The notes: generated from the sequence alone by a model not told the origin. A stretch of DNA of 64,000 nucleotides from a bacterium (GCA_037200965.1 JBBCGK010000001.1:608001-672000), one strand, 5' to 3'. Positions 22,715 through 34,336 are shown, numbered from the stretch's first letter. Numbers and translations are program-made.

Positions 22715-23854
22715 ATGAAAAGCGTTCGCGATATTCCGGTGCTTGAAAACGTACCGGTATTCGTGCGCTCGTCGCTCAATGTTCCGTTGGTAGATGGAAA
22801 GGTAGCGAACGCGTACCGCATCAAGCACGCGCTTCCCACCATCGAATTCCTCCGGAAAGAGAACGCGCGCATTGTTATCGGAAGCCATATCGGGGAAGCG
22901 GGAACCGAGACGCTCGAGCCCGTATACCTCGCGCTCAAGCAGATGCTCCCCGGCGTCTCGTTCTGCCCGGTCTCTACGGGTCCCCGGGCGCGCGAAGCGG
23001 TGCGGGCGCTTCTGCCGGGCGAAGTTCTCGTGCTTGAGAACCTGCGCAGGAATCGGGGGGAAGTGATGAACGACATGGCGTTTGCCGAAGCGCTTGCCGA
23101 ACTCACGGATGTCTTTGTCGAAGATGCGTTCGATACCTGCCATCGCGAGCACGCATCGATAGTAAGCCTTCCGACGCTCCTGCCTTCGTATGCGGGGCTT
23201 CAGCTCATCGAGGAGATCGCCGAACTCTCGAAGGCGCTCAAACCGAAGGCCCCGTCGCTCGCGGTCATCGGCGGCGCGAAGTTCGGCACCAAGGAGCCCG
23301 TGATCCGCAAGCTTCTCTCCCTCTACACGCACGTGTTTGTGGGCGGCGCGCTTGCGAACGATTTTCTCGCAGCTAAGGGCTATCCCGTGGGAAAGTCGCT
23401 CGTTTCGGGCGGAGATGCCGCCGCTACTAAAGAACTCTTGGTGGATAAGAAACTGGTGCTTCCGCTCGATTCGCTCGTCTGCAAATCCGGCGGCGCGAAA
23501 ACGCCCGGACAGGCACGTATCGCGGGACTTGATGACGTTCAGGAAGACGAAACCATCCTCGATCACGGCCCGAAGACGAATGAAATGCTCGCGAGATTGG
23601 CAGCCGGCGCGAAGACGATTCTCTGGAACGGGCCGCTCGGCCAGTATGAGGCGGGCTTCACGGAAGCGACGGATGCGCTTGCGGTCGCCATCGCCGACTC
23701 AGGCGCGGAGTCATACATCGGGGGAGGAGACACGGAAGCTGCCATCGACTCGCTCGGCCTCAACCGCCGATTCACGTTCATATCGACCGGCGGCGGCGCG
23801 ATGCTTTCGTATCTTGCGAAGGGGACGCTTCCGGGGATTGAGGCGCTGGGCTAG
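22715..23854 (+). CDS. pgk: phosphoglycerate kinase
   Basis: Full-length PGK: N-terminal substrate-binding basic patch, hinge, C-terminal ...STGGGAMLSYLAKGTLPGIEAL. Confidence 0.9.
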   Translation: MKSVRDIPVLENVPVFVRSSLNVPLVDGKVANAYRIKHALPTIEFLRKENARIVIGSHIGEAGTETLEPVYLALKQMLPGVSFCPVSTGPRAREAVRALLPGEVLVLENLRRNRGEVMNDMAFAEALAELTDVFVEDAFDTCHREHASIVSLPTLLPSYAGLQLIEEIAELSKALKPKAPSLAVIGGAKFGTKEPVIRKLLSLYTHVFVGGALANDFLAAKGYPVGKSLVSGGDAAATKELLVDKKLVLPLDSLVCKSGGAKTPGQARIAGLDDVQEDETILDHGPKTNEMLARLAAGAKTILWNGPLGQYEAGFTEATDALAVAIADSGAESYIGGGDTEAAIDSLGLNRRFTFISTGGGAMLSYLAKGTLPGIEALG

Positions 23855-24111
23855 GTTCCGTACAGGTTATGGTGCGTGTCGATGTCCGTGAGGACGATGG
23901 CGTCACCTACCATCTCGTAGATGAGTCGCCAATCGCCGGTCACGTTGATGCTTCGAAAGCCCGTCCATTCTCCCCGCAAGGGATGGTTGTTAAGTAGCGG
24001 GTTTTGAGGATCGGCCATAAACAGCCTAAGGCGCTCGACGAGCGCGCGGCGGATACCAGCCGGTAGGCGCGATACTCGTTTCTCAAACTGTCGTTTGCGG
24101 AGAACCTGCAT
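23851..24111 (-). CDS. RelE/StbE-family toxin (mRNA interferase)
   Basis: 86 aa; its stop overlaps the pgk stop convergently; follows the antitoxin gene on the minus strand. Confidence 0.65.
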   Translation of the reverse strand: MQVLRKRQFEKRVSRLPAGIRRALVERLRLFMADPQNPLLNNHPLRGEWTGFRSINVTGDWRLIYEMVGDAIVLTDIDTHHNLYGT

Positions 24112-24113
24112 GA

Positions 24114-24383
24114 CTATGCGCGTATGGCGCGCGCGAATTCTTCAAGGGACGAAGCGATGAAATGCTCCGGATGTTCGCGGTATTCGCGGCTAAGCGCTTC
24201 CCATTCGCGCAGCTTCTCCGGACGCGGTACAAGCGATACCTCGAACCGCCCGTCGGAAACGAACTGCGCGAGCTGCGCGTTCATAACGGTAGTAAGGGGA
24301 ATGCCGAGCTTCTGCGCGGTGCGCTTCGCGGCATCCCGGAGCTTTTTGTCAGTCTTGATGGTGATAGTTGTTTTCGTATTCAT
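24114..24383 (-). CDS. RelB/DinJ-family antitoxin
   Basis: 89 aa; 2-nt gap to the toxin gene. Confidence 0.6.
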   Translation of the reverse strand: MNTKTTITIKTDKKLRDAAKRTAQKLGIPLTTVMNAQLAQFVSDGRFEVSLVPRPEKLREWEALSREYREHPEHFIASSLEEFARAIRA

Positions 24384-24503: not shown

Positions 24504-24890
24504 ATGTTTAAACCAGGTATACTTTTAGTTATGGAAGACTGCATTTTCTGCAAAATAGTGAACCGAGAATCACCTGCCTCGGTAGTGTTTGAAGACGATA
24601 CCTCTATGGTAATTGAACCCATTGATCCTATTTCAAAAGGACATGTACTCGTGCTGCCCAAGAAACATTTTGTGAATATGCTCGATACCGACGACGAGAC
24701 GTTATCTCATCTTGCTGTCGTTTCCAAGAATGTCGGGCACACAGTGCTTGGAAAAAACAACGCTCACTCAATGAACCTTCTCCATGCCGCTGGGATGGAG
24801 GCGCAGCAATCCGTATTCCATCTCCACTTCCATATCGTGCCACGGTATGAGAATGATGGGCTGGATCTCTGGTTTAGGAACAGTCTCTAG
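24504..24890 (+). CDS. HIT-family hydrolase (paralogue A)
   Basis: Histidine triad HLHFHIVP; N-terminus MEDCIFCKIV shared with the HIT at 32203..32559. Start may be 24531. Confidence 0.7.
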   Translation: MFKPGILLVMEDCIFCKIVNRESPASVVFEDDTSMVIEPIDPISKGHVLVLPKKHFVNMLDTDDETLSHLAVVSKNVGHTVLGKNNAHSMNLLHAAGMEAQQSVFHLHFHIVPRYENDGLDLWFRNSL

Positions 24891-25504: not shown

Positions 25505-25690
25505 AGAAACTATACTTAGACCTATTTAATTCTCGCCCAAGTGACTTTGCTAACAGTGACCTGCCGGACAGTTATATCCGAGCGATAGAAATCGTTAAGC
25601 AAGAGGGTTACGAAAAGCTGATTGAAGAATACCAGTCCTTCGTGTAGTAGTTCCGAGGTTGTCCGTAAGGTCGCGACCCTCCCATCTGTT

Positions 25691-25770
25691 TCACAAATAT
25701 GCCCGAATCTTCCCCGCATTCCCCTCGAAATCCATTTTGTCCCCTTCCGCTTGGCCTGGGAATATCCAGA
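25691..25770 (-). pseudogene. 3'-terminal fragment (26 codons) of a HIT gene
   Basis: ~93% DNA identity to 32203-32275; translates IWIFPGQAEGDKMDFEGNAGKIRAYL* versus VWIFPGQAEGDKMDFEGNAERIRARL*. Confidence 0.7.
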
Positions 25771-25775
25771 TATTC

Positions 25776-25848
25776 AATCGGTGGCAACGCGGTAGTAGCG
25801 TATCTTGCATGGGAAACGCTTCCGGGGACTGAGGCGCTGGAATCCTAG
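25776..25848 (+). pseudogene. diverged 3'-terminal fragment of a pgk gene
   Basis: Translates ...SIGGNAVVAYLAWETLPGTEALES* versus the pgk C-terminus ISTGGGAMLSYLAKGTLPGIEALG*; ~75% DNA identity. Confidence 0.6.
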
Positions 25849-26615
25849 AGAGCCTTCCACATAAAGGCATGCATATTTTTAAACAGATTAGCGATATCCT
25901 TGTTTTCGATAACAACCGCAGATAAGTCCCGGAGACTTATAAGCGCGACCTTTTCGTTGAAAACAAGAACGTCGACATTGGACGTAAACCATTCGGGGAG
26001 CCGTTTGTCTGATTTATTTTCATATCCGTTCTTCTCGCGCAGAGCTCGCAGTTTTTTGTAGGTTTTAGCGCTTGCGATAAACAAATCCTTCGCCTTAAAC
26101 GCGTGATCGCTATTTGTCTTGTCGAAATCGCCGTATTCTGCTTCGGTGAAGTTTTCGAAGAAAATATCGGCGGGGAAGATGGAATACGTATCGCCGAGCG
26201 TTTTAAACAGTTCCTCGTAAATATTCTTGATCGCACGCTTTCCTTCGAAGAAGCCGACCTTGGGCTTGTTCGTCGCGCGTTCATATATCTTGCTCATGAC
26301 GGCGGCAGTCGAGTCGAATGCTAGAAGCTCCTTCCTAAGATTTGCGGCGACGGTCTTCGGATCGACTGCCGCGTACAGCGTGCGCTTGCCGATAGGTATC
26401 CGAGTAATGAAACCCTTTTTGAGCAGAAGATCCAGATATTCGTAGCAGGTAGCGCGCCGCACGTCCGCTTGGCGGACTATATCCGCGACTCCCATGCGGC
26501 TTTTCCCGAGAAGCGACACGTAAATCACCGCAGCCTTATCCGGCAAACCGATTCGTTCCAACTCCTTTATGAACGGGATATGTTCCATAAGTTCATATAA
26601 GCTGACTTGGAACAA
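25845..26615 (-). CDS. TrmB-family HTH transcriptional regulator (paralogue 3)
   Basis: HTH KAAVIYVSLLGKSRMGVADIVRQADVRRATCYEYLDLL. Confidence 0.6.
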   Translation of the reverse strand: MFQVSLYELMEHIPFIKELERIGLPDKAAVIYVSLLGKSRMGVADIVRQADVRRATCYEYLDLLLKKGFITRIPIGKRTLYAAVDPKTVAANLRKELLAFDSTAAVMSKIYERATNKPKVGFFEGKRAIKNIYEELFKTLGDTYSIFPADIFFENFTEAEYGDFDKTNSDHAFKAKDLFIASAKTYKKLRALREKNGYENKSDKRLPEWFTSNVDVLVFNEKVALISLRDLSAVVIENKDIANLFKNMHAFMWKAL

Positions 26616-26720: not shown

Positions 26721-27245
26721 TTGAATACTGGGCGGGCTGGTATGGCGCTAAAATCAAAGACAACTCTGCAAACCAAACGCGGCATTTTCGAAGTCGGATA
26801 TTACGTTGTAGACGGGAATCCTTATGTTTCTTTCCGCTACGGGGATGTTTCCCAGGGCAGACCAATAGTGCGATTACAGTCGGCTTGCCTTTTCGGGGAG
26901 GCTTTCGGTTCGCTTGAGTGCGAGTGTGGCGCGCAACTTGCCAAGGCTCTGGACGCCATTGTTAGCCGCGGGGCGGGTCTTGTGCTCTATGCCTATGCGG
27001 AAGGTCGTGGCGCAGGGCTTGAGAAAAAGATAGAAGCTATGGAGATTCAAAGGACGACCGGATGCAATACAGTCGAAGCTTTTGACTCGCTTGGTCTTGA
27101 GAAGTCCGACTACCGGGATTATCAGGCTGAGGTGAACATCCTCACCGAGTTAGGCACAAGCCTCCATATCTGCTTGTTTTCGAAAAATCCAGCTCGATAT
27201 CAAGCGCTCAAAGACGCAGGCTTCGATGTAGATCCATATGAGTAG
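26721..27245 (+). CDS. GTP cyclohydrolase II-like protein (RibA/ToxB-like)
   Basis: Zinc-ligand motif RLQSACLFGEAFGSLECECGAQL with the three conserved Cys; ...YAEGRGAGL... matches the GCH II core. Start may be ATG 26742. Confidence 0.7.
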   Translation: MNTGRAGMALKSKTTLQTKRGIFEVGYYVVDGNPYVSFRYGDVSQGRPIVRLQSACLFGEAFGSLECECGAQLAKALDAIVSRGAGLVLYAYAEGRGAGLEKKIEAMEIQRTTGCNTVEAFDSLGLEKSDYRDYQAEVNILTELGTSLHICLFSKNPARYQALKDAGFDVDPYE

Positions 27246-28140
27246 CTCGTCTGAGCTTATGTATCGTTGGCTTCGCGTATCTCCTACCGGAGACGGATAT
27301 ATCGAGCCCGATTATTACGATCAGCTTCTCAGAAAGTATATCTTTGATGGTAAAGAGGATACCGAGTACTTCCGAGAACATCTTGCAAAAGCACCTTCTC
27401 ATTCAGCATTTCTTGAGCTTGGCCCCGGGACCGGACGAGCGACAAATATACTATTCGCATCGGTTCCGGACATACATTCGCTTACGCTCGTTGATTTAAG
27501 CAGCCGTATGCTTAGTAGCTGCAAACAAGTTTTCACCCGCAAAGAATGCATTTCTTATGTCGTTTCCGATTCCATAGATTTCCTGTTGTCAGTGCAGTCG
27601 TCGTACGACTATATCTATAGCCTGTGGAGTCTTTCTCACTCCATACACAAGAATCTTGAAGACTTGGGAAAAGAAGACGGAAAAGCAAAAGTACGAGAGG
27701 CGCTCTTAAAAATGGTACGGGAGAATCTCAACCGGAACGGCTCTTTATTCCTGATACATTTCGATTCTTCCTCTCCCGAGCAGGAAATATCTATTCGGCA
27801 AAGGCGGCGCGATTCCCGTGACCGGAAATTGTTTGCAGATGTCTCCAAACAAAGTCCCTCTAAGGAAATACTCGACGAGTGCCTTGAAGAATTAAGGCGC
27901 TCGGGTGAGATCTGTTTTGAATGTGAGAGGCATGTAGGTACAGCGCTCGAATTCAGTTCGCTCGACGAAGCGCTCGAGTATTATCTTAATTTCCATATGG
28001 CTTCGTATTTCAATACCTCAAGTTCGATCGACGACATCTTGAAGGAGCTTTCTCAGGATTTACTGGAACACCAAGGGAGTGATGGAAAGATACGGATCGT
28101 TCCCGGTTGCTTCATCTACAAAGCAAGTAAGCCTGGTTAA
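27238..28140 (+). CDS. class I SAM-dependent methyltransferase
   Basis: Motif I LELGPGTGRAT; its ATG overlaps the stop of the GCH II-like gene by 8 nt. Confidence 0.65.
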   Translation: MSSSSELMYRWLRVSPTGDGYIEPDYYDQLLRKYIFDGKEDTEYFREHLAKAPSHSAFLELGPGTGRATNILFASVPDIHSLTLVDLSSRMLSSCKQVFTRKECISYVVSDSIDFLLSVQSSYDYIYSLWSLSHSIHKNLEDLGKEDGKAKVREALLKMVRENLNRNGSLFLIHFDSSSPEQEISIRQRRRDSRDRKLFADVSKQSPSKEILDECLEELRRSGEICFECERHVGTALEFSSLDEALEYYLNFHMASYFNTSSSIDDILKELSQDLLEHQGSDGKIRIVPGCFIYKASKPG

Positions 28141-28176: not shown

Positions 28177-28998
28177 CTAAGATACTTGGCTATTCATCAG
28201 ATCGCGCAAAAGCTCGTTCGCATCTATAAGCTGCGAATGCTCCTGCATAAATTCAAAGGCGGAAAGAATCATTTTTTGTATCTCCGAGTTCTTGACTTCG
28301 ACAATCAATCCTTCGCTTAAGGAGAAGAGATATAAGGAATCCTTAAATATCCAGCACTGGCCGCCATGCCTGAAGTACTTTGGATCAATAACATTGACTC
28401 TCGCGGTGCGTCCTTCGAAATCTTTCACCCATTGTATTCCTAGAGAACGCGCTTGTTCCTCAAGCCACCCGATTGGCAAGACAGCTTCGGTAATCGTACG
28501 GCCCTTCTTTATATCGCGGTTTATTCGGTTTGTTTCGGAAACGGTGAACAGGGTATTCCAACTCTTGGTCGCGCGGTCACCTTGGAAGCCCCAGAAGAAC
28601 CGTTGGTTCTTGTTCGCTTCAAAGAGCTCAAGCATGACCTTCCTAATTGCTTCTTTTCCCCGATAGATACATACCGTTGAGTCAGCGCGACCGTGAACCT
28701 GTTGGTTTCCTTCGGGTATTTGCAGCAAGAAACGCTTGAAATCGTATAGTGCCTGATCAATAGTATCTCCGCTATGCAATTGCCACCGCTTGCGTCCTTT
28801 GGCGATGCGCGAAACGGCCAGCCCTCGTTTATGCAGATTCGCCAAAATCGCATAAATGGCAGAGCGGGAGATTCCCGTCTGGCGAGTCAGCTTTAAGGGC
28901 GTATCCGCACCGTCGCGAAGCGCCAAGAGAATCTTCCTTTCCTTGATTGAGAGGCCGAGTATTCGCAGATCATCGTGAAGTGCCATACGGCAAAACAT
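28177..28998 (-). CDS. TrmB-family HTH transcriptional regulator (paralogue 4)
   Basis: HTH KERKILLALRDGADTPLKLTRQTGISRSAIYAILANL. Confidence 0.55.
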   Translation of the reverse strand: MFCRMALHDDLRILGLSIKERKILLALRDGADTPLKLTRQTGISRSAIYAILANLHKRGLAVSRIAKGRKRWQLHSGDTIDQALYDFKRFLLQIPEGNQQVHGRADSTVCIYRGKEAIRKVMLELFEANKNQRFFWGFQGDRATKSWNTLFTVSETNRINRDIKKGRTITEAVLPIGWLEEQARSLGIQWVKDFEGRTARVNVIDPKYFRHGGQCWIFKDSLYLFSLSEGLIVEVKNSEIQKMILSAFEFMQEHSQLIDANELLRDLMNSQVS

Positions 28999-29169
28999 AG
29001 CAAAAGGTATATAACCTGTCCACTTTCTTAGACAGATATATAAAGCATAAAAACCCTTATATACAGCTTATTTCCAGTATTACTCAACTTAGAGAATACC
29101 TTACTATACTGTCAATGTCTTTAGGATCATTCTTATAGAGGGAACTAGAACTTTATATGGGAGACCGCT

Positions 29170-30318
29170 ATGGCTTGCGAAACGAACGAAGTGCCGCAGG
29201 AAGTGACCGCGATCGATCGTTGGATTGACCACGTATTGCACGGAGAAAAGGATACTGCGATTCCAACGTTACTTGGTCGGGAAGTTCCACCTCTTTTGTC
29301 GTGGATAGTGCGGGGCGGATGCGCGATACAGTGCCGCCACTGCATCTTTCCTCACGAAGGCCCGAAAACCTTCGGCGTGCAAACGGGCGAGGAAGCGCTT
29401 CTCGGCATTCTCCGCCAGTTGTCCGGTTCGCGCCACCTCATTCACGAAGGAAGGCAGCTACTTCCGTGGCAGGTACCGATCTTGGCGGCTGCAGGCCGCG
29501 CAGGACACGGAGTATCGCTTATCAATAACGGACAATATGCAGCGCCGAATATGCTGGCGCTATGCGAGCGAGAGGGGCTCGCAATCGACGCGCTTGACGT
29601 GTCGGTCGACGGTACGAAAGATATCCACAATGGACAGCGCGCGAGCAATAATGCCTGGGACATCGCAATGAAAGGGATTGTGCATGCCAAGCACATACTC
29701 AAGACCGATGGCAAACTTACTTCTCTCTTCACGCTCACCACGCTCAATCACGCGCACTTAGCCGAAACGGGAGAGATGCTCACGCAGGTGGTCGATGAAT
29801 GGCACGTGACGACGATGTCGTTACGGCCGGGGATCGAGCACCTGCGGGCAGGCGATCGCGAACTCGCCTTAGCGCTTGAACAATTGCTCGGCGGCAACTT
29901 CGCGAAACCAGTGTTCCTGCGTACCTATTCTCTCGACGATTTTGTCGCTCTGCTTGGAATTCTCGGAAAAGAAACGGCAAATAGGGTTCTCAGGAACGCG
30001 CTGGTGACTTATAACGCCATCGTACTCGATATCGGAATACCCCTGTACTTCTATCCTAAGTCCCTGCAGGTGAATGAAACGTTAGTGATCGACGCGGATG
30101 GGTGGTGGCGTCTGCCGTTTTGCATCCATCACTCGCTTGCGGAACTGCGGGCGGGAGAGGATGAGATGGGCAAGGATATTTCGCATTTCAATGTCGTCCC
30201 GGTACTGCCGTGCGTGGATGTCCCAACTCTCCATGCCAAGGCCGCATCGAGATGGTGGGTCAGTATAGGCCGGGATTGTTTATCGCTTGAGCGCCAGGCG
30301 CTCGAAGCGTTTCTCTAA
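29170..30318 (+). CDS. radical SAM protein (CAIQCRHC)
   Basis: CxxxCxxC motif GGCAIQCRHCIFP ~60 residues from the N-terminus; 382 aa; AT-rich promoter region upstream. Confidence 0.65.
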   Translation: MACETNEVPQEVTAIDRWIDHVLHGEKDTAIPTLLGREVPPLLSWIVRGGCAIQCRHCIFPHEGPKTFGVQTGEEALLGILRQLSGSRHLIHEGRQLLPWQVPILAAAGRAGHGVSLINNGQYAAPNMLALCEREGLAIDALDVSVDGTKDIHNGQRASNNAWDIAMKGIVHAKHILKTDGKLTSLFTLTTLNHAHLAETGEMLTQVVDEWHVTTMSLRPGIEHLRAGDRELALALEQLLGGNFAKPVFLRTYSLDDFVALLGILGKETANRVLRNALVTYNAIVLDIGIPLYFYPKSLQVNETLVIDADGWWRLPFCIHHSLAELRAGEDEMGKDISHFNVVPVLPCVDVPTLHAKAASRWWVSIGRDCLSLERQALEAFL

Positions 30319-30341
30319 CAACCGGAAAGGAGGTGAAAACT

Positions 30342-30461
30342 ATGTCCGGAGCCAATACCGGTTCCGCTGGCGTGGATGCGAAAGCACGTCCGCCAGTGCA
30401 ATCGTCAGGGGCGAATACCGGTTCGACGGGCGTAACGACGCCGCGTTTGCCGCGTAAGTAG
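30342..30461 (+). CDS. 39-aa repeat-containing peptide ORF immediately downstream of the radical SAM gene (candidate precursor peptide)
   Basis: Perfect SD AAAGGAGG 8 nt before ATG, 23 nt after the rSAM stop. MSGANTGSAGVDAKARPPVQSSGANTGSTGVTTPRLPRK carries SGANTGS(A/T)GV twice. Confidence 0.35.
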   Translation: MSGANTGSAGVDAKARPPVQSSGANTGSTGVTTPRLPRK

Positions 30462-30471
30462 CCTCGGTGAC

Positions 30472-30520
30472 TACAGAGAGCCCGTTCACGCTTTTGATTC
30501 GCGTGGGCGGGCTCTTCTCT
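30472..30520 (+). terminator. structured hairpin with T-rich tail after the peptide ORF
   Basis: gagagcccg...cgggctctt followed by ctcttttat. Confidence 0.35.
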
Positions 30521-30738
30521 TTTATACACTAAATGTGATTCTCGATGTTTCTTTAGAATCGATCGGTCGCCGTTCGCGTAGCCGAGACGGGTCTAACAAT
30601 CGAACGATAGCGGCGCAATGCTCAAGTCTCTTGCGGCTGAATGTTTTCAGCGATTGAAGCATTGAGAGACTAAACAGATTACTCTATTCATAAAGACGCA
30701 TATACCACCTCGTAAAGTCACCCAATACCGCTTTGGTA

Positions 30739-31554
30739 TCAACGACGAATATGAAAATCCTTGGATATACGGCGTTTCCACGCGGCGGCTTTCCCAGGGT
30801 CTTTAGCAATTTTTACCTTTGATGTAACTTCGTGATCTAACTTCTTCAACTTATCCTTGGCGCGCTCAAGGTCGGTTTCCGTTTTAAAGAGAAGTTCGAC
30901 TGCCTTTCGAGCTTTGGGATTAAAACGCACTTCAATCACCCATTCGTGGATTACGGCAATAAACACTTCTTGACGAACTTTCGGCGAGTACGATACCTCA
31001 ACGTTAGAGAATGCGAGCTCCCGGGTTGCGAGCTTGTCGAGCGCCGAAGAGGAGCCGATGAGAAGATAGGCTCTTCTTCCTTTTGCTCCAAGGAGCATAT
31101 CGTGGCTTTTGTCGCTATCGCCACGCAGTACACTCGACCAATTATGCGGATTAAAGAGGTAAAGGTGCTGGCGGTGAGGAACACCCTTTTCAATTACTGA
31201 AAACAGATGGGACCATATCCGATCCATAGCAGTAAGACCATGAATGGTAAGCGTGATCTCTTCTCCGCGTTCAAGCTGACTGAAGTCGCCGAGGATGGAA
31301 CTGTTTTTATATTCGACAAGCTGGCGAAGCTGCTTTAACCAATGTTCGCTTACCGATACGGCAGAACGGTAGACGATAACCTTCTCTTGCGCTCTCAGCT
31401 TTCTAAGCGCCCTATAAAAACCCTGCTTCGTGCAGGCGTGCTTCCTCCTCAGGCCTTTAAGGAGCTCAGTAGTCGTAACCGCTCCTTTTTGAAGTACAAA
31501 AGTAAGGACTGAATCTTCAAGGCGGCTGCCTAACAGTTGCATAGCAGTAAACAA
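30739..31554 (-). CDS. TrmB-like HTH regulator (paralogue 5, more divergent)
   Basis: N-terminal wHTH LTFVLQKGAVTTTELLKGLRRK... with a C-terminal TrmB-like effector domain. Confidence 0.45.
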   Translation of the reverse strand: MFTAMQLLGSRLEDSVLTFVLQKGAVTTTELLKGLRRKHACTKQGFYRALRKLRAQEKVIVYRSAVSVSEHWLKQLRQLVEYKNSSILGDFSQLERGEEITLTIHGLTAMDRIWSHLFSVIEKGVPHRQHLYLFNPHNWSSVLRGDSDKSHDMLLGAKGRRAYLLIGSSSALDKLATRELAFSNVEVSYSPKVRQEVFIAVIHEWVIEVRFNPKARKAVELLFKTETDLERAKDKLKKLDHEVTSKVKIAKDPGKAAAWKRRISKDFHIRR

Positions 31555-31643: not shown

Positions 31644-32081
31644 TTGGAGGAACGAACTATGTGTTTTTGTGGCTATGATCCGAAAATGGGCGAGAGCGTC
31701 CGGGTGTTTGCTGAGGGGTTGAATCGATCCCTCAGCGCCAAGGCCGAGCGTCTCGGTCTTACCATGTCCGCGCAGATGCAATCGGAAGCGCTCGAGCTGA
31801 ACGCGCTGATCGAACTCCTGAACCAGAAGCTCGCGAACTCGGAAGACTCTCGACGACATGAGCTGGAAGGACTGCTCGGCATCGTGTACCTCATTCGTGC
31901 TCTTATGCAGCCGGAACGAAACGAGATATCCGTTCGCAGCGACTTCGAACTCTCAGTTCGCACGCGGGCAGTTCGACTGGACGAGAGCATGATTCGCTTC
32001 GAACAAATCTTCGAATCCGACCAGGGTGATTTTCTCAGCGAGCGGCTTCGTCGTGCGGTTGCTGCCGCAATTGAGGCTTAA
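31644..32081 (+). CDS. hypothetical protein
   Basis: 145-aa ORF at the distal end of the island. Confidence 0.35.
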   Translation: MEERTMCFCGYDPKMGESVRVFAEGLNRSLSAKAERLGLTMSAQMQSEALELNALIELLNQKLANSEDSRRHELEGLLGIVYLIRALMQPERNEISVRSDFELSVRTRAVRLDESMIRFEQIFESDQGDFLSERLRRAVAAAIEA

Positions 32082-32202
32082 TTTCAGCCTGTCCCTTCTT
32101 GAGAACCCACGTTCTTCTGCTGCTATGCGGTGGAGAACGGAGGGTTCTTCTTTTCGTTTTGGGTTCCGACAGCGCCTGCAGGCTCGCTGAGCTTTACTGG
32201 TT

Positions 32203-32559
32203 CTACAAACGCGCCCGAATCCTCTCCGCATTCCCCTCGAAATCCATTTTGTCCCCTTCCGCTTGGCCCGGGAATATCCAGACATGGGCATGCGCCACTT
32301 CCTCGCCGACGCTCTTCGAGATAATCCAATCGGTATTGAAAGCCTTTTGCTGCGCTCTCGCGACTTTCCGGACAACTTCGAAATAGCGGCCGATGTCGGG
32401 AACGTCCCATATCCAGCGGTAGTGCTGTTTCGGTATGACCTGCACGTGGCCTGGCGTTTCCGGATGGATATCGATAAACGCGAGGAAGAAATCGTCCTCA
32501 TATACCTTGTATGAAGGAATCTCGCCCCGGACGAGCTTGCAGAACACGCAGTCTTCCAT
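32203..32559 (-). CDS. HIT-family hydrolase (paralogue B)
   Basis: HAHVWIFP histidine triad; start MEDCVFCKLV at 32559 (the 176-aa ORF is over-extended). Confidence 0.7.
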   Translation of the reverse strand: MEDCVFCKLVRGEIPSYKVYEDDFFLAFIDIHPETPGHVQVIPKQHYRWIWDVPDIGRYFEVVRKVARAQQKAFNTDWIISKSVGEEVAHAHVWIFPGQAEGDKMDFEGNAERIRARL

Positions 32560-32605
32560 GAAGGAAATATAGCGCACGGAGGAATTCTGGTACAATCCAC
32601 CAACG

Positions 32606-34336
32606 ATGTTTCCGCTCCATGGTCCTTTGGACGAACGAATACGGGAAATACTCTCCGAGTATGACGACCTGACCGCCGCGCTGCTCTCGCGCAGGGGCAT
32701 TACGACCAAGAAAGAGGCCGAAACCTTCCTCAACCCGAGCTATGAGGAGCATCTCCACGATCCGCTCCTTATAAAGAACATGCCGGGGGCGGCGAAGATG
32801 CTTGCGGAAGCGATTGCCTCGGGCGAGCGCATCTGCGTATGGAGCGATTATGACTGCGACGGCATTCCGGGCGGCGTCCTTCTCCATGATTTCCTCAAGA
32901 AAGCGGGCGCGAACTTCGAGAACTATATCCCGCACCGGCATGACGAAGGATACGGGCTCAATATTCCGGGGCTCGAGAAGCTTGCGGGGAGCGGCGTGAA
33001 GCTCGTCGTGACGGTCGATTCCGGCATCACGGATGTCGAACAGGTCGCGCGCGCGAAAGAGCTCGGCATGAAAGTCATCGTGACCGACCACCACCTGCCG
33101 GGCCCCGCGCTTCCTCCGGCTGATTTCGTTATCGACCAGAAGCAGGAAGGAGAAACGTCGCCGTACCAGGAACTGTGCGGCGCGGGAGTCGCGTGGAAAC
33201 TCGCCTGCGCGACGCTTGCGGTCGCTCCCGGGCTTCGGGAGAAGATTCCTGTCGGCTGGGAGAAGTGGCTTCTCGATATGGCGGGGCTCGCGACGATCGC
33301 CGACATGGTTCCGCTTACGGGCGAGAACCGGGTTATCGCGAAATACGGACTCCTGGTCATGCGAAAATCGCCGCGCATTGGCCTGCAAAGACTTTGCCGC
33401 GTCGCCCGCGTCGAGCAGCGCTCGATCACCGAAGGCGATGTGGCGTTCATGCTCGCGCCGAGGATAAACGCGGCGTCGAGAATGCTCGATCCGCGCGACG
33501 CGTTCGACCTTCTCACGACAAGCGATGAGATAGAGGCGGACGAGCTCGCGAAGAAGCTCGAGAAAGCGAACCGGGCACGTCGCGCGTCCGCCGGAGCGAT
33601 AACGCGGGAGGTGCACGACCGGATTGACGAGCGCCTTTCGGTGCCGGACGCCGAACTCCCTGCCGTGATCGCGATCGGGAATCCTTCGTGGCGCCCGGCC
33701 CTTCTGGGGCTCGTCGCAAGCGGCGTCGTCGAGGAGTACGCGCGCCCGGTATTTCTTTGGGGGAGGGAAGCGGACGGCCGCCTCAAGGGTTCGTGCCGCA
33801 CGGACGGGACGGTGAACGTGGTCGAGCTCATGGAAGCCGCGAAGGATACCTTCGTCGAATTCGGCGGCCATGCCGCGTCCGGCGGATTCACCGTCCGCGA
33901 CGACGCGGTTTTTTATCTTGAGGAACGCCTTTCGGAAGCGAAATCGAAACTGAAGTCCGCGGAAAGTGCCGACGCGTTCTCGCACGCGGACGCCGAGATC
34001 GCTCCGCATGAAGTCACGGCAGCCCTTCTGTCGAAATTAGAGAAGCTCGCGCCCTTCGGAGAGGGAAACCCAAAACCGCTCTTCCATTTCCGCGACGTGC
34101 TCCTTGACGAAGCGTCGCGCTTCGGGAAAGGAGAGGAGCACCTGCGCCTCCTTATCATGAGCGACGGCTTCAAGCCGCTCGAAGCGATCTGTTTCTTCGC
34201 GAAGCGCGAACTTGGGGCGAAGTGCTTCGAGTTTTCGGAAGGGGACCGCGTGCATGTGCTCGCGCATCTCGAGCGAAATCAGTTTTCGAAATACGGTTCC
34301 GTGCGGCTGCGGTTGGTTGACGTAAAGAGGGTTTAA
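32606..34336 (+). CDS. recJ: single-stranded-DNA-specific exonuclease RecJ
   Basis: DHH motifs (DYDCDG, VTVDSG, VTDHH) and DHHA1 domain; 576 aa. Confidence 0.85.
   Translation: MFPLHGPLDERIREILSEYDDLTAALLSRRGITTKKEAETFLNPSYEEHLHDPLLIKNMPGAAKMLAEAIASGERICVWSDYDCDGIPGGVLLHDFLKKAGANFENYIPHRHDEGYGLNIPGLEKLAGSGVKLVVTVDSGITDVEQVARAKELGMKVIVTDHHLPGPALPPADFVIDQKQEGETSPYQELCGAGVAWKLACATLAVAPGLREKIPVGWEKWLLDMAGLATIADMVPLTGENRVIAKYGLLVMRKSPRIGLQRLCRVARVEQRSITEGDVAFMLAPRINAASRMLDPRDAFDLLTTSDEIEADELAKKLEKANRARRASAGAITREVHDRIDERLSVPDAELPAVIAIGNPSWRPALLGLVASGVVEEYARPVFLWGREADGRLKGSCRTDGTVNVVELMEAAKDTFVEFGGHAASGGFTVRDDAVFYLEERLSEAKSKLKSAESADAFSHADAEIAPHEVTAALLSKLEKLAPFGEGNPKPLFHFRDVLLDEASRFGKGEEHLRLLIMSDGFKPLEAICFFAKRELGAKCFEFSEGDRVHVLAHLERNQFSKYGSVRLRLVDVKRV

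Follow-up and report, generated by a model that had tools for sequence, protein, structure and literature searches.

Within a 64,000-nucleotide stretch of bacterial DNA (GCA_037200965.1, JBBCGK010000001.1:608001-672000; hereafter the window), a gene for a radical S-adenosylmethionine (SAM) enzyme (rSAM) of 382 aa is located at 29170..30318 on the plus strand, its CAIQCRHC motif spanning residues 51-58. Downstream of this gene lies a Shine-Dalgarno (SD) site (AAAGGAGG; 30326..30333, +) and, after an 8-nt spacer, the ATG at position 30342 of a small open reading frame (ORF; 30342..30461, +) for a 39-aa peptide, MSGANTGSAGVDAKARPPVQSSGANTGSTGVTTPRLPRK. This leaderless and cysteine-free precursor-like peptide carries two cores, G-A-N-T-G-S-A-G (30348..30371, +) and G-A-N-T-G-S-T-G (30408..30431, +), which correspond to a 30-nt direct repeat of 80% identity (30344-30373 and 30404-30433) with mostly synonymous differences. 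An initial annotation had read the two genes as a precursor/maturase pair resembling those of the RiPPs (peptides that are ribosomally synthesised and modified post-translationally), and the rSAM gene and the SD-led repeat ORF that it reported are indeed present. It was also right about the perfect SD site and its 8-nt spacer, but the 23 nt that it placed between the rSAM stop codon and the SD site are in fact the distance from that stop codon to the ATG.

The hairpin with a T-rich tail noted behind the peptide ORF proved to be an intrinsic terminator (30476..30525, +), in which a 16-bp stem (30476-30516) is followed by the T-rich CUCUUUUAU; its folding energy of -33.1 kcal/mol (z = -4.73) was equalled by 0/200 shuffled sequences. 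On the other side of the rSAM gene, a winged-helix regulator of the TrmB family is encoded divergently (28177..28998, -), as annotated earlier, and its match to the Pfam TrmB model passes only marginally (25.9 bits versus a gathering score of 25.6). The rSAM gene and the peptide ORF(s) are co-transcribed from the AT-rich promoter region shared with this regulator, and the operon closes at the strong terminator. Moreover, the ribosome-binding site of the peptide is much stronger than that of the rSAM.

To examine the conservation of this arrangement, a locus search with a narrower alignment was made, which yielded only five loci from genomes and three from metagenomes; the contexts were instead assembled by 12 exact-protein look-ups. 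The initial annotation had made its reading depend beforehand on conservation of the small ORF beside homologous rSAM genes, and a same-strand short SD-led ORF with an A-N-x-G-S core was found next to the rSAM gene in 15/15 non-redundant loci with enough flanking sequence, so that a short precursor gene is co-conserved beside a modifying enzyme, as in RiPP pairs generally. These loci span rSAM identities from 67% to about 27%, and only L019 and L009 (a truncated 1.6-kb contig) went without a score. The core-bearing ORFs number 1-3 per locus and are each preceded by GAAAGGAGGTGA, 4-7 nt and an ATG; they lie 3′ of the rSAM gene in most loci and 5′ of it, on the same strand, in L010, L021, L022 and L023.

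Compared with the window (rSAM identity 100%, one peptide with 2 cores), L001 (67%) has two ORFs with 2 and 3 cores, L014 (63%) and L005 (about 62-63%) have 3 cores, and L004 (about 61-62%) has 2, while two 18-aa ORFs are found in L008 (55%), two ORFs upstream of the rSAM gene in L010 (51%), and MTGANTGSAGTDEQRPVKR in L017 (45%). Further out, the peptides are MNPALIQCDGFANVGSAGVPSNVRKPRPAAK in L020 (33%), the 11-aa MGGANTGSTGK in L015 and L016 (31-33%), MAGANTGSTRK... followed by VSSAGSTRK... and ATNVGSTTRK... in L021 (30%), ...LNLNSGSAGMGEESRPPKP... (...NLNSGSAGM...) in L018 (28%), MPNANMGSIHS... in L022 (27%), and MAAANTGSGGQNGSPVPVTR (MAAANTGSGG...) in L023, whose rSAM (about 27%) is the most distant scored member at E = 1e-15. 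The peptide core is thus retained where the remainder diverges (L015, L016, L018 and L023). Two of the three occurrences of N-x-G-S-x-G in the six frames of the window are those of the peptide; the single stray one is about what composition predicts, and in the fetched loci the motif is essentially absent outside the peptides. Past the module the genes vary by locus (RNase Y/HU, DNA methylase, MscL, copper ATPases, UvrB, RuvA and others), and only the TrmB-family gene, the rSAM gene and the peptide(s) travel together in the loci examined.

At L015 4001-5185 (P0053, Moraniibacteriota) the rSAM gene has no stop codon before the SD-ATG-GGANTGSTGK unit, resulting in a natural in-frame read-through from enzyme to peptide. 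Enzyme and peptide unit do not share a reading frame in L016, the sister locus.

Relatives of the peptide were retrieved only with a profile of six peptides, a word-based search with the single window peptide having found no shared words and the Pfam and NCBIfam models having given no match to the peptides even at E = 10. Against a collection of 5.8 billion proteins, this profile yielded 39 clusters of 31-66 aa, unnamed or "hypothetical" and all with the same core, at least five of which are on contigs equal in size to contigs bearing rSAM homologues. The resulting census comprises 51 distinct peptides with 98 cores, for which the Asn and the Gly between x and Ser were preset by the search pattern. 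The core consensus reads G(76%)-A(85%)-N-T(76%; else V, S or I)-G-S(96%)-A(67%; else T or V)-G(93%), and the G-A-N-T-G-S-A-G core is devoid of aromatic residues and His. Peptides carry 1-4 cores, two in most cases, and each core is followed by a spacer or tail rich in Pro, Lys, Arg and Gln; the basic tail may be a putative follower. Since the first core usually begins at about residue 3 (starting at residues 2-4, with the first Asn as residue 5, in 39/51 peptides), the peptides are without a leader. Cysteine occurs in 11/51 members. Specifically, a sub-group (P0175, P0179, P0186, P0193, P0172 and L020 4135-4230) has an N-terminal extension of 7-10 residues with Cys-Phe or Cys-Asp-Gly-Phe before core 1, and its pattern M..KCF(A/G)GANTGSAG is the only recurrent Cys/aromatic feature of the family.

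In-frame internal units of an SD site and an ATG are frequent in multi-core peptides (...QKGGES-M-AGANTGS and ...RKEVRN-M-AGANTGS), examples being L004 6349-6504, L005 6474-6662, L021 1573-1802 and P0167-P0169, P0177, P0188 and P0190. It looks as if the multi-core peptides arose by duplication of SD-start-core cassettes that became fused through stop-codon loss, and internal initiation could then lead to single-core peptides. Furthermore, the fifth codon of the core, that of the Gly preceding Ser, is GGY in 20/22 instances, and the other two core Gly residues use all four codons; this bias could be a codon-context effect or an RNA-level constraint. A scan of viral contigs for the SD-ATG-core DNA pattern gave zero matches.

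The small ORF might alternatively not be a gene at all, in which case the repeat would be an RNA or DNA element, a chance ORF, or the mirror image of an antisense ORF. An 89-aa antisense ORF is indeed present (30260..30529, -) and mirrors the repeats as TPVEPVFAP and TPAEPVLAP, with similar ORFs at other loci. For the core codons that were not preset by the search, third-position entropy was 1.7-2.0 bits, far above that of positions 1 and 2. However, the antisense frame (T-P-A-E-P-V-(F/L)-A-P) is open too and uses the same wobble positions, so codon periodicity alone cannot pick the strand; it was dropped as proof of translation in favour of a census of start signals. A sense ORF with a canonical SD site and an ATG holds 24/25 cores, while an SD site precedes only one of the 25 antisense equivalents; these begin with GTG or TTG, erratically spaced, and four of them have no start at all. 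The start signals therefore identify the sense strand as the translated one, and the antisense ORF merely reflects which codons are complementary to each other (Gly/Pro, Ala/Ala, Thr/Val and Ser/Glu). Rfam searches of the 24-34 kb part of the window returned two sub-threshold chance matches only, so Rfam cannot decide on an RNA element; even so, the separate peptide ORFs each have their own SD site and stop codon (and in the window a terminator as well), and other pipelines had predicted the proteins of the 39 peptide clusters independently. We therefore regard the absence of a gene here as highly improbable.

The rSAM of the window is a divergent member of the Radical SAM superfamily. In an alignment of 43 family members its CxxxCxHC motif is invariant (C51, C55, H57 and C58), and so are the SAM-site residues G94, G121, S145, D147, G148, H153, Q156 and R157 and the C-terminal residues P296, S298, E303, D308, D310, W362 and E374. 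The enzyme has the partial TIM-barrel of the rSAM core, misses the gathering score of Pfam PF04055 (23.1 bits versus 29.5), and has several homologues that carry a precomputed PF04055 match. Its top NCBIfam matches (NirJ, AhbC and various SPASM maturases) score about 25 bits where 300-700 would be required, and none of the Pfam and NCBIfam models is a curated family for either the rSAM or the peptide. Among 1.84 billion cluster representatives, an exhaustive HMMER search detected 110 relatives at E < 1e-3, 70 of them at E < 1e-10, and a word-indexed search found 53 close relatives; the rSAM family is thus rare and self-contained. By source name, all members but one belong to Patescibacteria (Paceibacterota, Nomurabacteria, Adlerbacteria and Moranbacteria). 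The exception is the 63%-identical rSAM fragment of L009 (CAIOIN010000084.1, 1572 nt), binned as "Candidatus Micrarchaeota archaeon", which is probably a case of mis-binning since the contig is short and every other member is from Patescibacteria.

The structure of the enzyme was modelled with AlphaFold (pLDDT 94.1, pTM 0.91). A PDB profile search matched anSME (4.7e-7), SkfB (7.7e-7) and YydG (5.9e-5) over core residues 41-202 only. The enzyme folds like the peptide- and protein-modifying rSAMs of the SPASM/twitch lineage, but has lost every auxiliary-cluster cysteine. Indeed, no cysteine column outside the triad exceeds 37% in the alignment, two members (P0072 and P0076) have zero cysteines besides the SAM-cluster triad, and the NCBIfam SPASM families all scored far under their cut-offs on the window enzyme. 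Since the auxiliary-cluster cysteines are not conserved, this rSAM has no SPASM/twitch auxiliary cluster and no cysteine as H-atom donor; it is not a SPASM/twitch enzyme, which corrects the picture behind the initial annotation. What is left is an enzyme with a single predicted [4Fe-4S] site (C51/C55/C58) and a twitch-like C-terminal domain without cysteines, the hairpin of which (NETLVIDADGWWRLP) includes the invariant E303, D308 and D310. A GYW motif is not conserved, its position reading DADG-x-WR with a variable x. Scores for HxsB (17 bits) and for the pVip profiles (14.7 and 14.2 bits, E about 0.004-0.006) were low as well, and the latter do not place the enzyme among the prokaryotic viperins.

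A Foldseek search with the model ranked DesII, SkfB, BlsE and viperin-like enzymes at the top, the matches to DesII, BlsE and viperin-like proteins having TM-scores of 0.45-0.58. This might in turn indicate a non-peptide substrate for the rSAM, for instance a nucleotide or sugar, with the peptide linked in function, either as a signal or ligand of the TrmB-like regulator or as a small effector. The lack of an auxiliary cluster would fit such a role, as would the GTP cyclohydrolase II and SAM methyltransferase genes just upstream in the window. However, these last two genes, like a second TrmB-family gene beside them, are never found next to rSAM homologues at the other loci; we consequently place the GTP cyclohydrolase II and the methyltransferase outside the pathway and reject them as parts of it. 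The initial annotation had named a clean fall of the rSAM into a non-peptide-modifying family as an outcome that would refute its reading. This outcome did not occur, and we consider a non-peptide substrate improbable.

The TrmB-family gene adjoins the rSAM gene in 16/16 loci examined, usually in divergent orientation. Full-length alignment of the window's regulator with its TrmB-family counterparts elsewhere gives about 20% identity. A palindrome in the promoter region that regulator and rSAM gene share in the window, CTGTC-N10-GACAG (29016..29035), is a candidate operator, and at the equivalent intergenic position, shortly upstream of the TrmB gene start, the palindrome GTCAAT-N5-TTGA(C/T) was found in 13 other loci (intergenic regions of L001, L004, L005, L008, L010, L014-L018 and L020-L023). 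From these patterns we infer an autoregulated divergent promoter with the palindrome as the putative binding site of the TrmB-like protein. The variant palindrome of the window, together with its much diverged regulator, suggests that regulator and operator may have changed together.

The accessory island proposed for this locus was borne out by the flanking direct repeats. Direct repeats at 25688-25773 and 32200-32285 (90% identity) bound a 6.5-kb cassette that contains the rSAM module, and a second direct-repeat pair is present at 23783-23849 and 25774-25840 (76% identity). Copied in these repeats are the 3′ ends of the flanking genes, pgk (22715..23854) and one of the HIT family (32203..32733, -), giving the layout D2, cassette A, D1-D2, cassette B, D1, in which cassette B (about 6.4 kb) holds the rSAM module. 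This layout implies two different cassettes in tandem in one intergenic hot spot. Cassette A contains a type II toxin-antitoxin pair, made up of a YafQ/RelE-like toxin (23851..24111, -) and, upstream of it, an 89-aa antitoxin-like ORF (24114..24383, -), followed by a HIT-family paralogue (24504..24890). The second TrmB-family gene (25845..26615, -) is divergent from a two-gene operon of the GTP cyclohydrolase II (26721..27245) and the SAM methyltransferase (27238..28140), the two genes sharing 8 nt; a match to the PADLOC "mad2" model (E = 1.7e-12) was obtained for the methyltransferase. Downstream of the module are ORFs at 30739-31554 (-, 271 aa) and 31644-32081 (+, 145 aa), neither of which had a Pfam, NCBIfam or PADLOC match or was found in the other loci.

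Taken together, these data describe a three-gene module restricted to Patescibacteria of the candidate phyla radiation (CPR), consisting of a TrmB-family regulator, a single-cluster rSAM and short multi-core peptides, and we consider it probable that the peptides are the substrate of the enzyme in a RiPP-like precursor/maturase pair. The initial annotation thus finds support in the co-conservation of the two genes, and modification of the peptide is a putative step.

Several further observations weigh against this interpretation. The peptides of the census have no leader, and neither a RiPP recognition element (RRE) nor a leader or follower recognised by one was found: in the model the N-terminus of the rSAM is formed by two short helices before the cluster loop, and Pfam gave no PqqD-type match. 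In the AlphaFold model of the P0053 fusion, the GANTGSTGK tail is undocked (pLDDT 51-64). Foldseek puts the cluster-less small-molecule enzymes DesII, BlsE and viperin level with SkfB, so that the fold alone cannot show a peptide substrate. The reciprocal link from peptide to rSAM could be checked, via the equal-sized contigs, for about five peptides only, and the most distant rSAM homologue (L019, 26%) could not be scored since its contig ends 196 nt upstream of the gene. Finally, genes for a protease, a transporter or immunity do not recur next to the module in the loci examined.

This last point would also suit a different role for the peptide, namely that of a scaffold sacrificed to make a small molecule or cofactor in the manner of pyrroloquinoline quinone (PQQ) or mycofactocin. 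The rSAM would modify the A-N-x-G-S core, whose excised product would be used inside the cell, and the peptide would not be secreted as a bioactive compound. An invariant tetrad in variable surroundings, present in several copies per ORF, would fit stoichiometric production of small units; the smallest precursor has just 11 aa, and the CPR bacteria that carry the module have small genomes (about 1-Mb contig). However, PQQ and mycofactocin systems require an RRE chaperone and a peptidase, neither of which is present here, the patchy and island-borne distribution is unlike that of a core cofactor, and the Pro/Lys/Arg-rich tails, too, broadly keep their character across the family. A scaffold role thus seems doubtful to us, and we retain the enzyme-modified peptide as the preferred interpretation. 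A bolder version of it, in which the module represents the first RiPP class native to Patescibacteria/CPR, with leaderless precursors of 11-66 aa and 1-4 cores that are modified independently of an RRE by an rSAM of SPASM/twitch descent, stripped of every auxiliary cluster, through new chemistry on a core with neither Cys nor aromatic residues (such as a crosslink based on Asn and Ser, or Ser oxidation returning an electron to the SAM cluster), is one that we put forward tentatively, as somewhat less than an even prospect.

In a possible mechanism, the C51/C55/C58 cluster would cleave SAM reductively, and the resulting 5′-deoxyadenosyl radical would take a hydrogen within A-N-x-G-S, the candidates being Ser, Asn, or the alpha-carbon of the residue before Gly. 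The twitch-like hairpin might hold the peptide, with its invariant acidic residues perhaps contributing by binding of the basic tails. The reaction would then probably proceed as an oxidation or crosslink involving two electrons, in which the SAM cluster takes back the electron as in DesII (such as an anSME-like oxidation of the Ser C-beta, perhaps followed by Asn-Ser cyclisation), or as a redox-neutral rearrangement. An invariant Asn, Gly and Ser around one permissive position would fit either Ser oxidation or a redox-neutral scheme. Since there is neither an auxiliary cluster nor a conserved cysteine, thioether formation, cysteine-dependent epimerisation (of the YydG or PoyD type) and the cyclopropyl-synthase mechanism are unlikely to be the conserved reaction; given what enzyme and core are composed of, we rejected the Cys-dependent epimerase, thioether, cyclophane and cyclopropane options in that role. 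Any single chemistry that one might assign to the rSAM is unlikely to be the correct one. Following modification, the basic spacers might be cut by a housekeeping protease to give several modified units, and the TrmB-like protein would repress or activate the operon via the palindrome.

Patescibacteria are largely uncultured, have genomes of about 1 Mb, and are thought to be poor in specialised metabolism. A conserved, mobile and self-regulated peptide-modification module in these bacteria would, if true, offer a handle on signalling or competition with their hosts and neighbours. It would also be a very small test case for enzymology, with one single-cluster enzyme of ~380 aa and a substrate as short as an 11-mer. 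The system poses the questions of how a twitch-derived rSAM recognises a peptide without leader or RRE and how it completes its reaction without an auxiliary cluster, and the Asn-x-Gly-Ser tetrad points to chemistry at residues that rSAM RiPP enzymes rarely target. Most peptides of the family fall under default ORF cut-offs, and none is named in the databases searched.

When compared with known systems, the closest precedent for one rSAM modifying repeat-motif precursors (TVGG, TIGSVS) is that of TvgA/TvgB and TigB/TigE (PMC10878394). As in the window, a short precursor consists of a repeated 4-6-residue aliphatic/polar motif served by one rSAM for all repeats, and the motifs of TvgA and TigB likewise feature a residue before G-S or G-G, comparable to N-(T/V/I)-G-S here (PMC10878394). 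However, the cyclopropyl synthases TvgB and TigE have a GYW motif, the Tyr of which ligates auxiliary cluster I, in addition to a SPASM domain (PMC10878394), whereas the window rSAM has no conserved GYW and no auxiliary cluster. SkfB, SuiB, CteB and anSME, the best structural or profile matches, have the SAM-binding core motifs and the post-barrel beta-hairpin (DADGxWRLP here) in common with the window enzyme, but they all bind auxiliary Fe-S clusters, and the RiPP maturases among them (SkfB, SuiB and CteB) combine an N-terminal RRE with leader-dependent Cys or aromatic substrates, all of which are lacking here. Conversely, DesII, BlsE and viperin resemble the window rSAM in having a single [4Fe-4S] cluster and a similar fold and size, but act on nucleotides or nucleotide sugars and have no co-encoded peptides (pVip models scored about 14 bits here).

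The cores on which the epimerases YydG/EpeE and PoyD (of the proteusins) act resemble ours in their abundance of Gly, Ala, Val, Asn and Thr, and YydG was among the profile matches given above. In these epimerases a conserved cysteine is the H-atom donor, and the proteusins have a long NHLP-type leader; in contrast, P0072 and P0076 are devoid of cysteine outside CxxxCxxC and the peptides here are leaderless. Sactipeptides and ranthipeptides need a core Cys for their thioether, unlike the cysteine-free peptide of the window and the bulk of its family, and triceptides (three-residue cyclophanes) and HxsA-type peptides need an aromatic residue or His in the repeated motif, of which the present core has neither. 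A precedent for tiny leaderless RiPP precursors is provided by the biarylitides, whose 5-aa precursors are crosslinked by a P450, and which differ in enzyme class and in their aromatic crosslink (PMC12951456). Our literature search found GANTGS and ANTGSAG in no paper of the library searched, and none that ties rSAM RiPPs to this family. In its logic, the module is closest to TvgA/TvgB and TigB/TigE, in its fold to SkfB, SuiB and anSME, and in its single-cluster state to DesII, BlsE and viperin, while it departs from each of these known families in a defining feature. The module of the GANTGSAG peptide and its rSAM is therefore most likely an undescribed family of enzyme-modified peptides, of the kind represented by the rSAM-modified ribosomal peptides.

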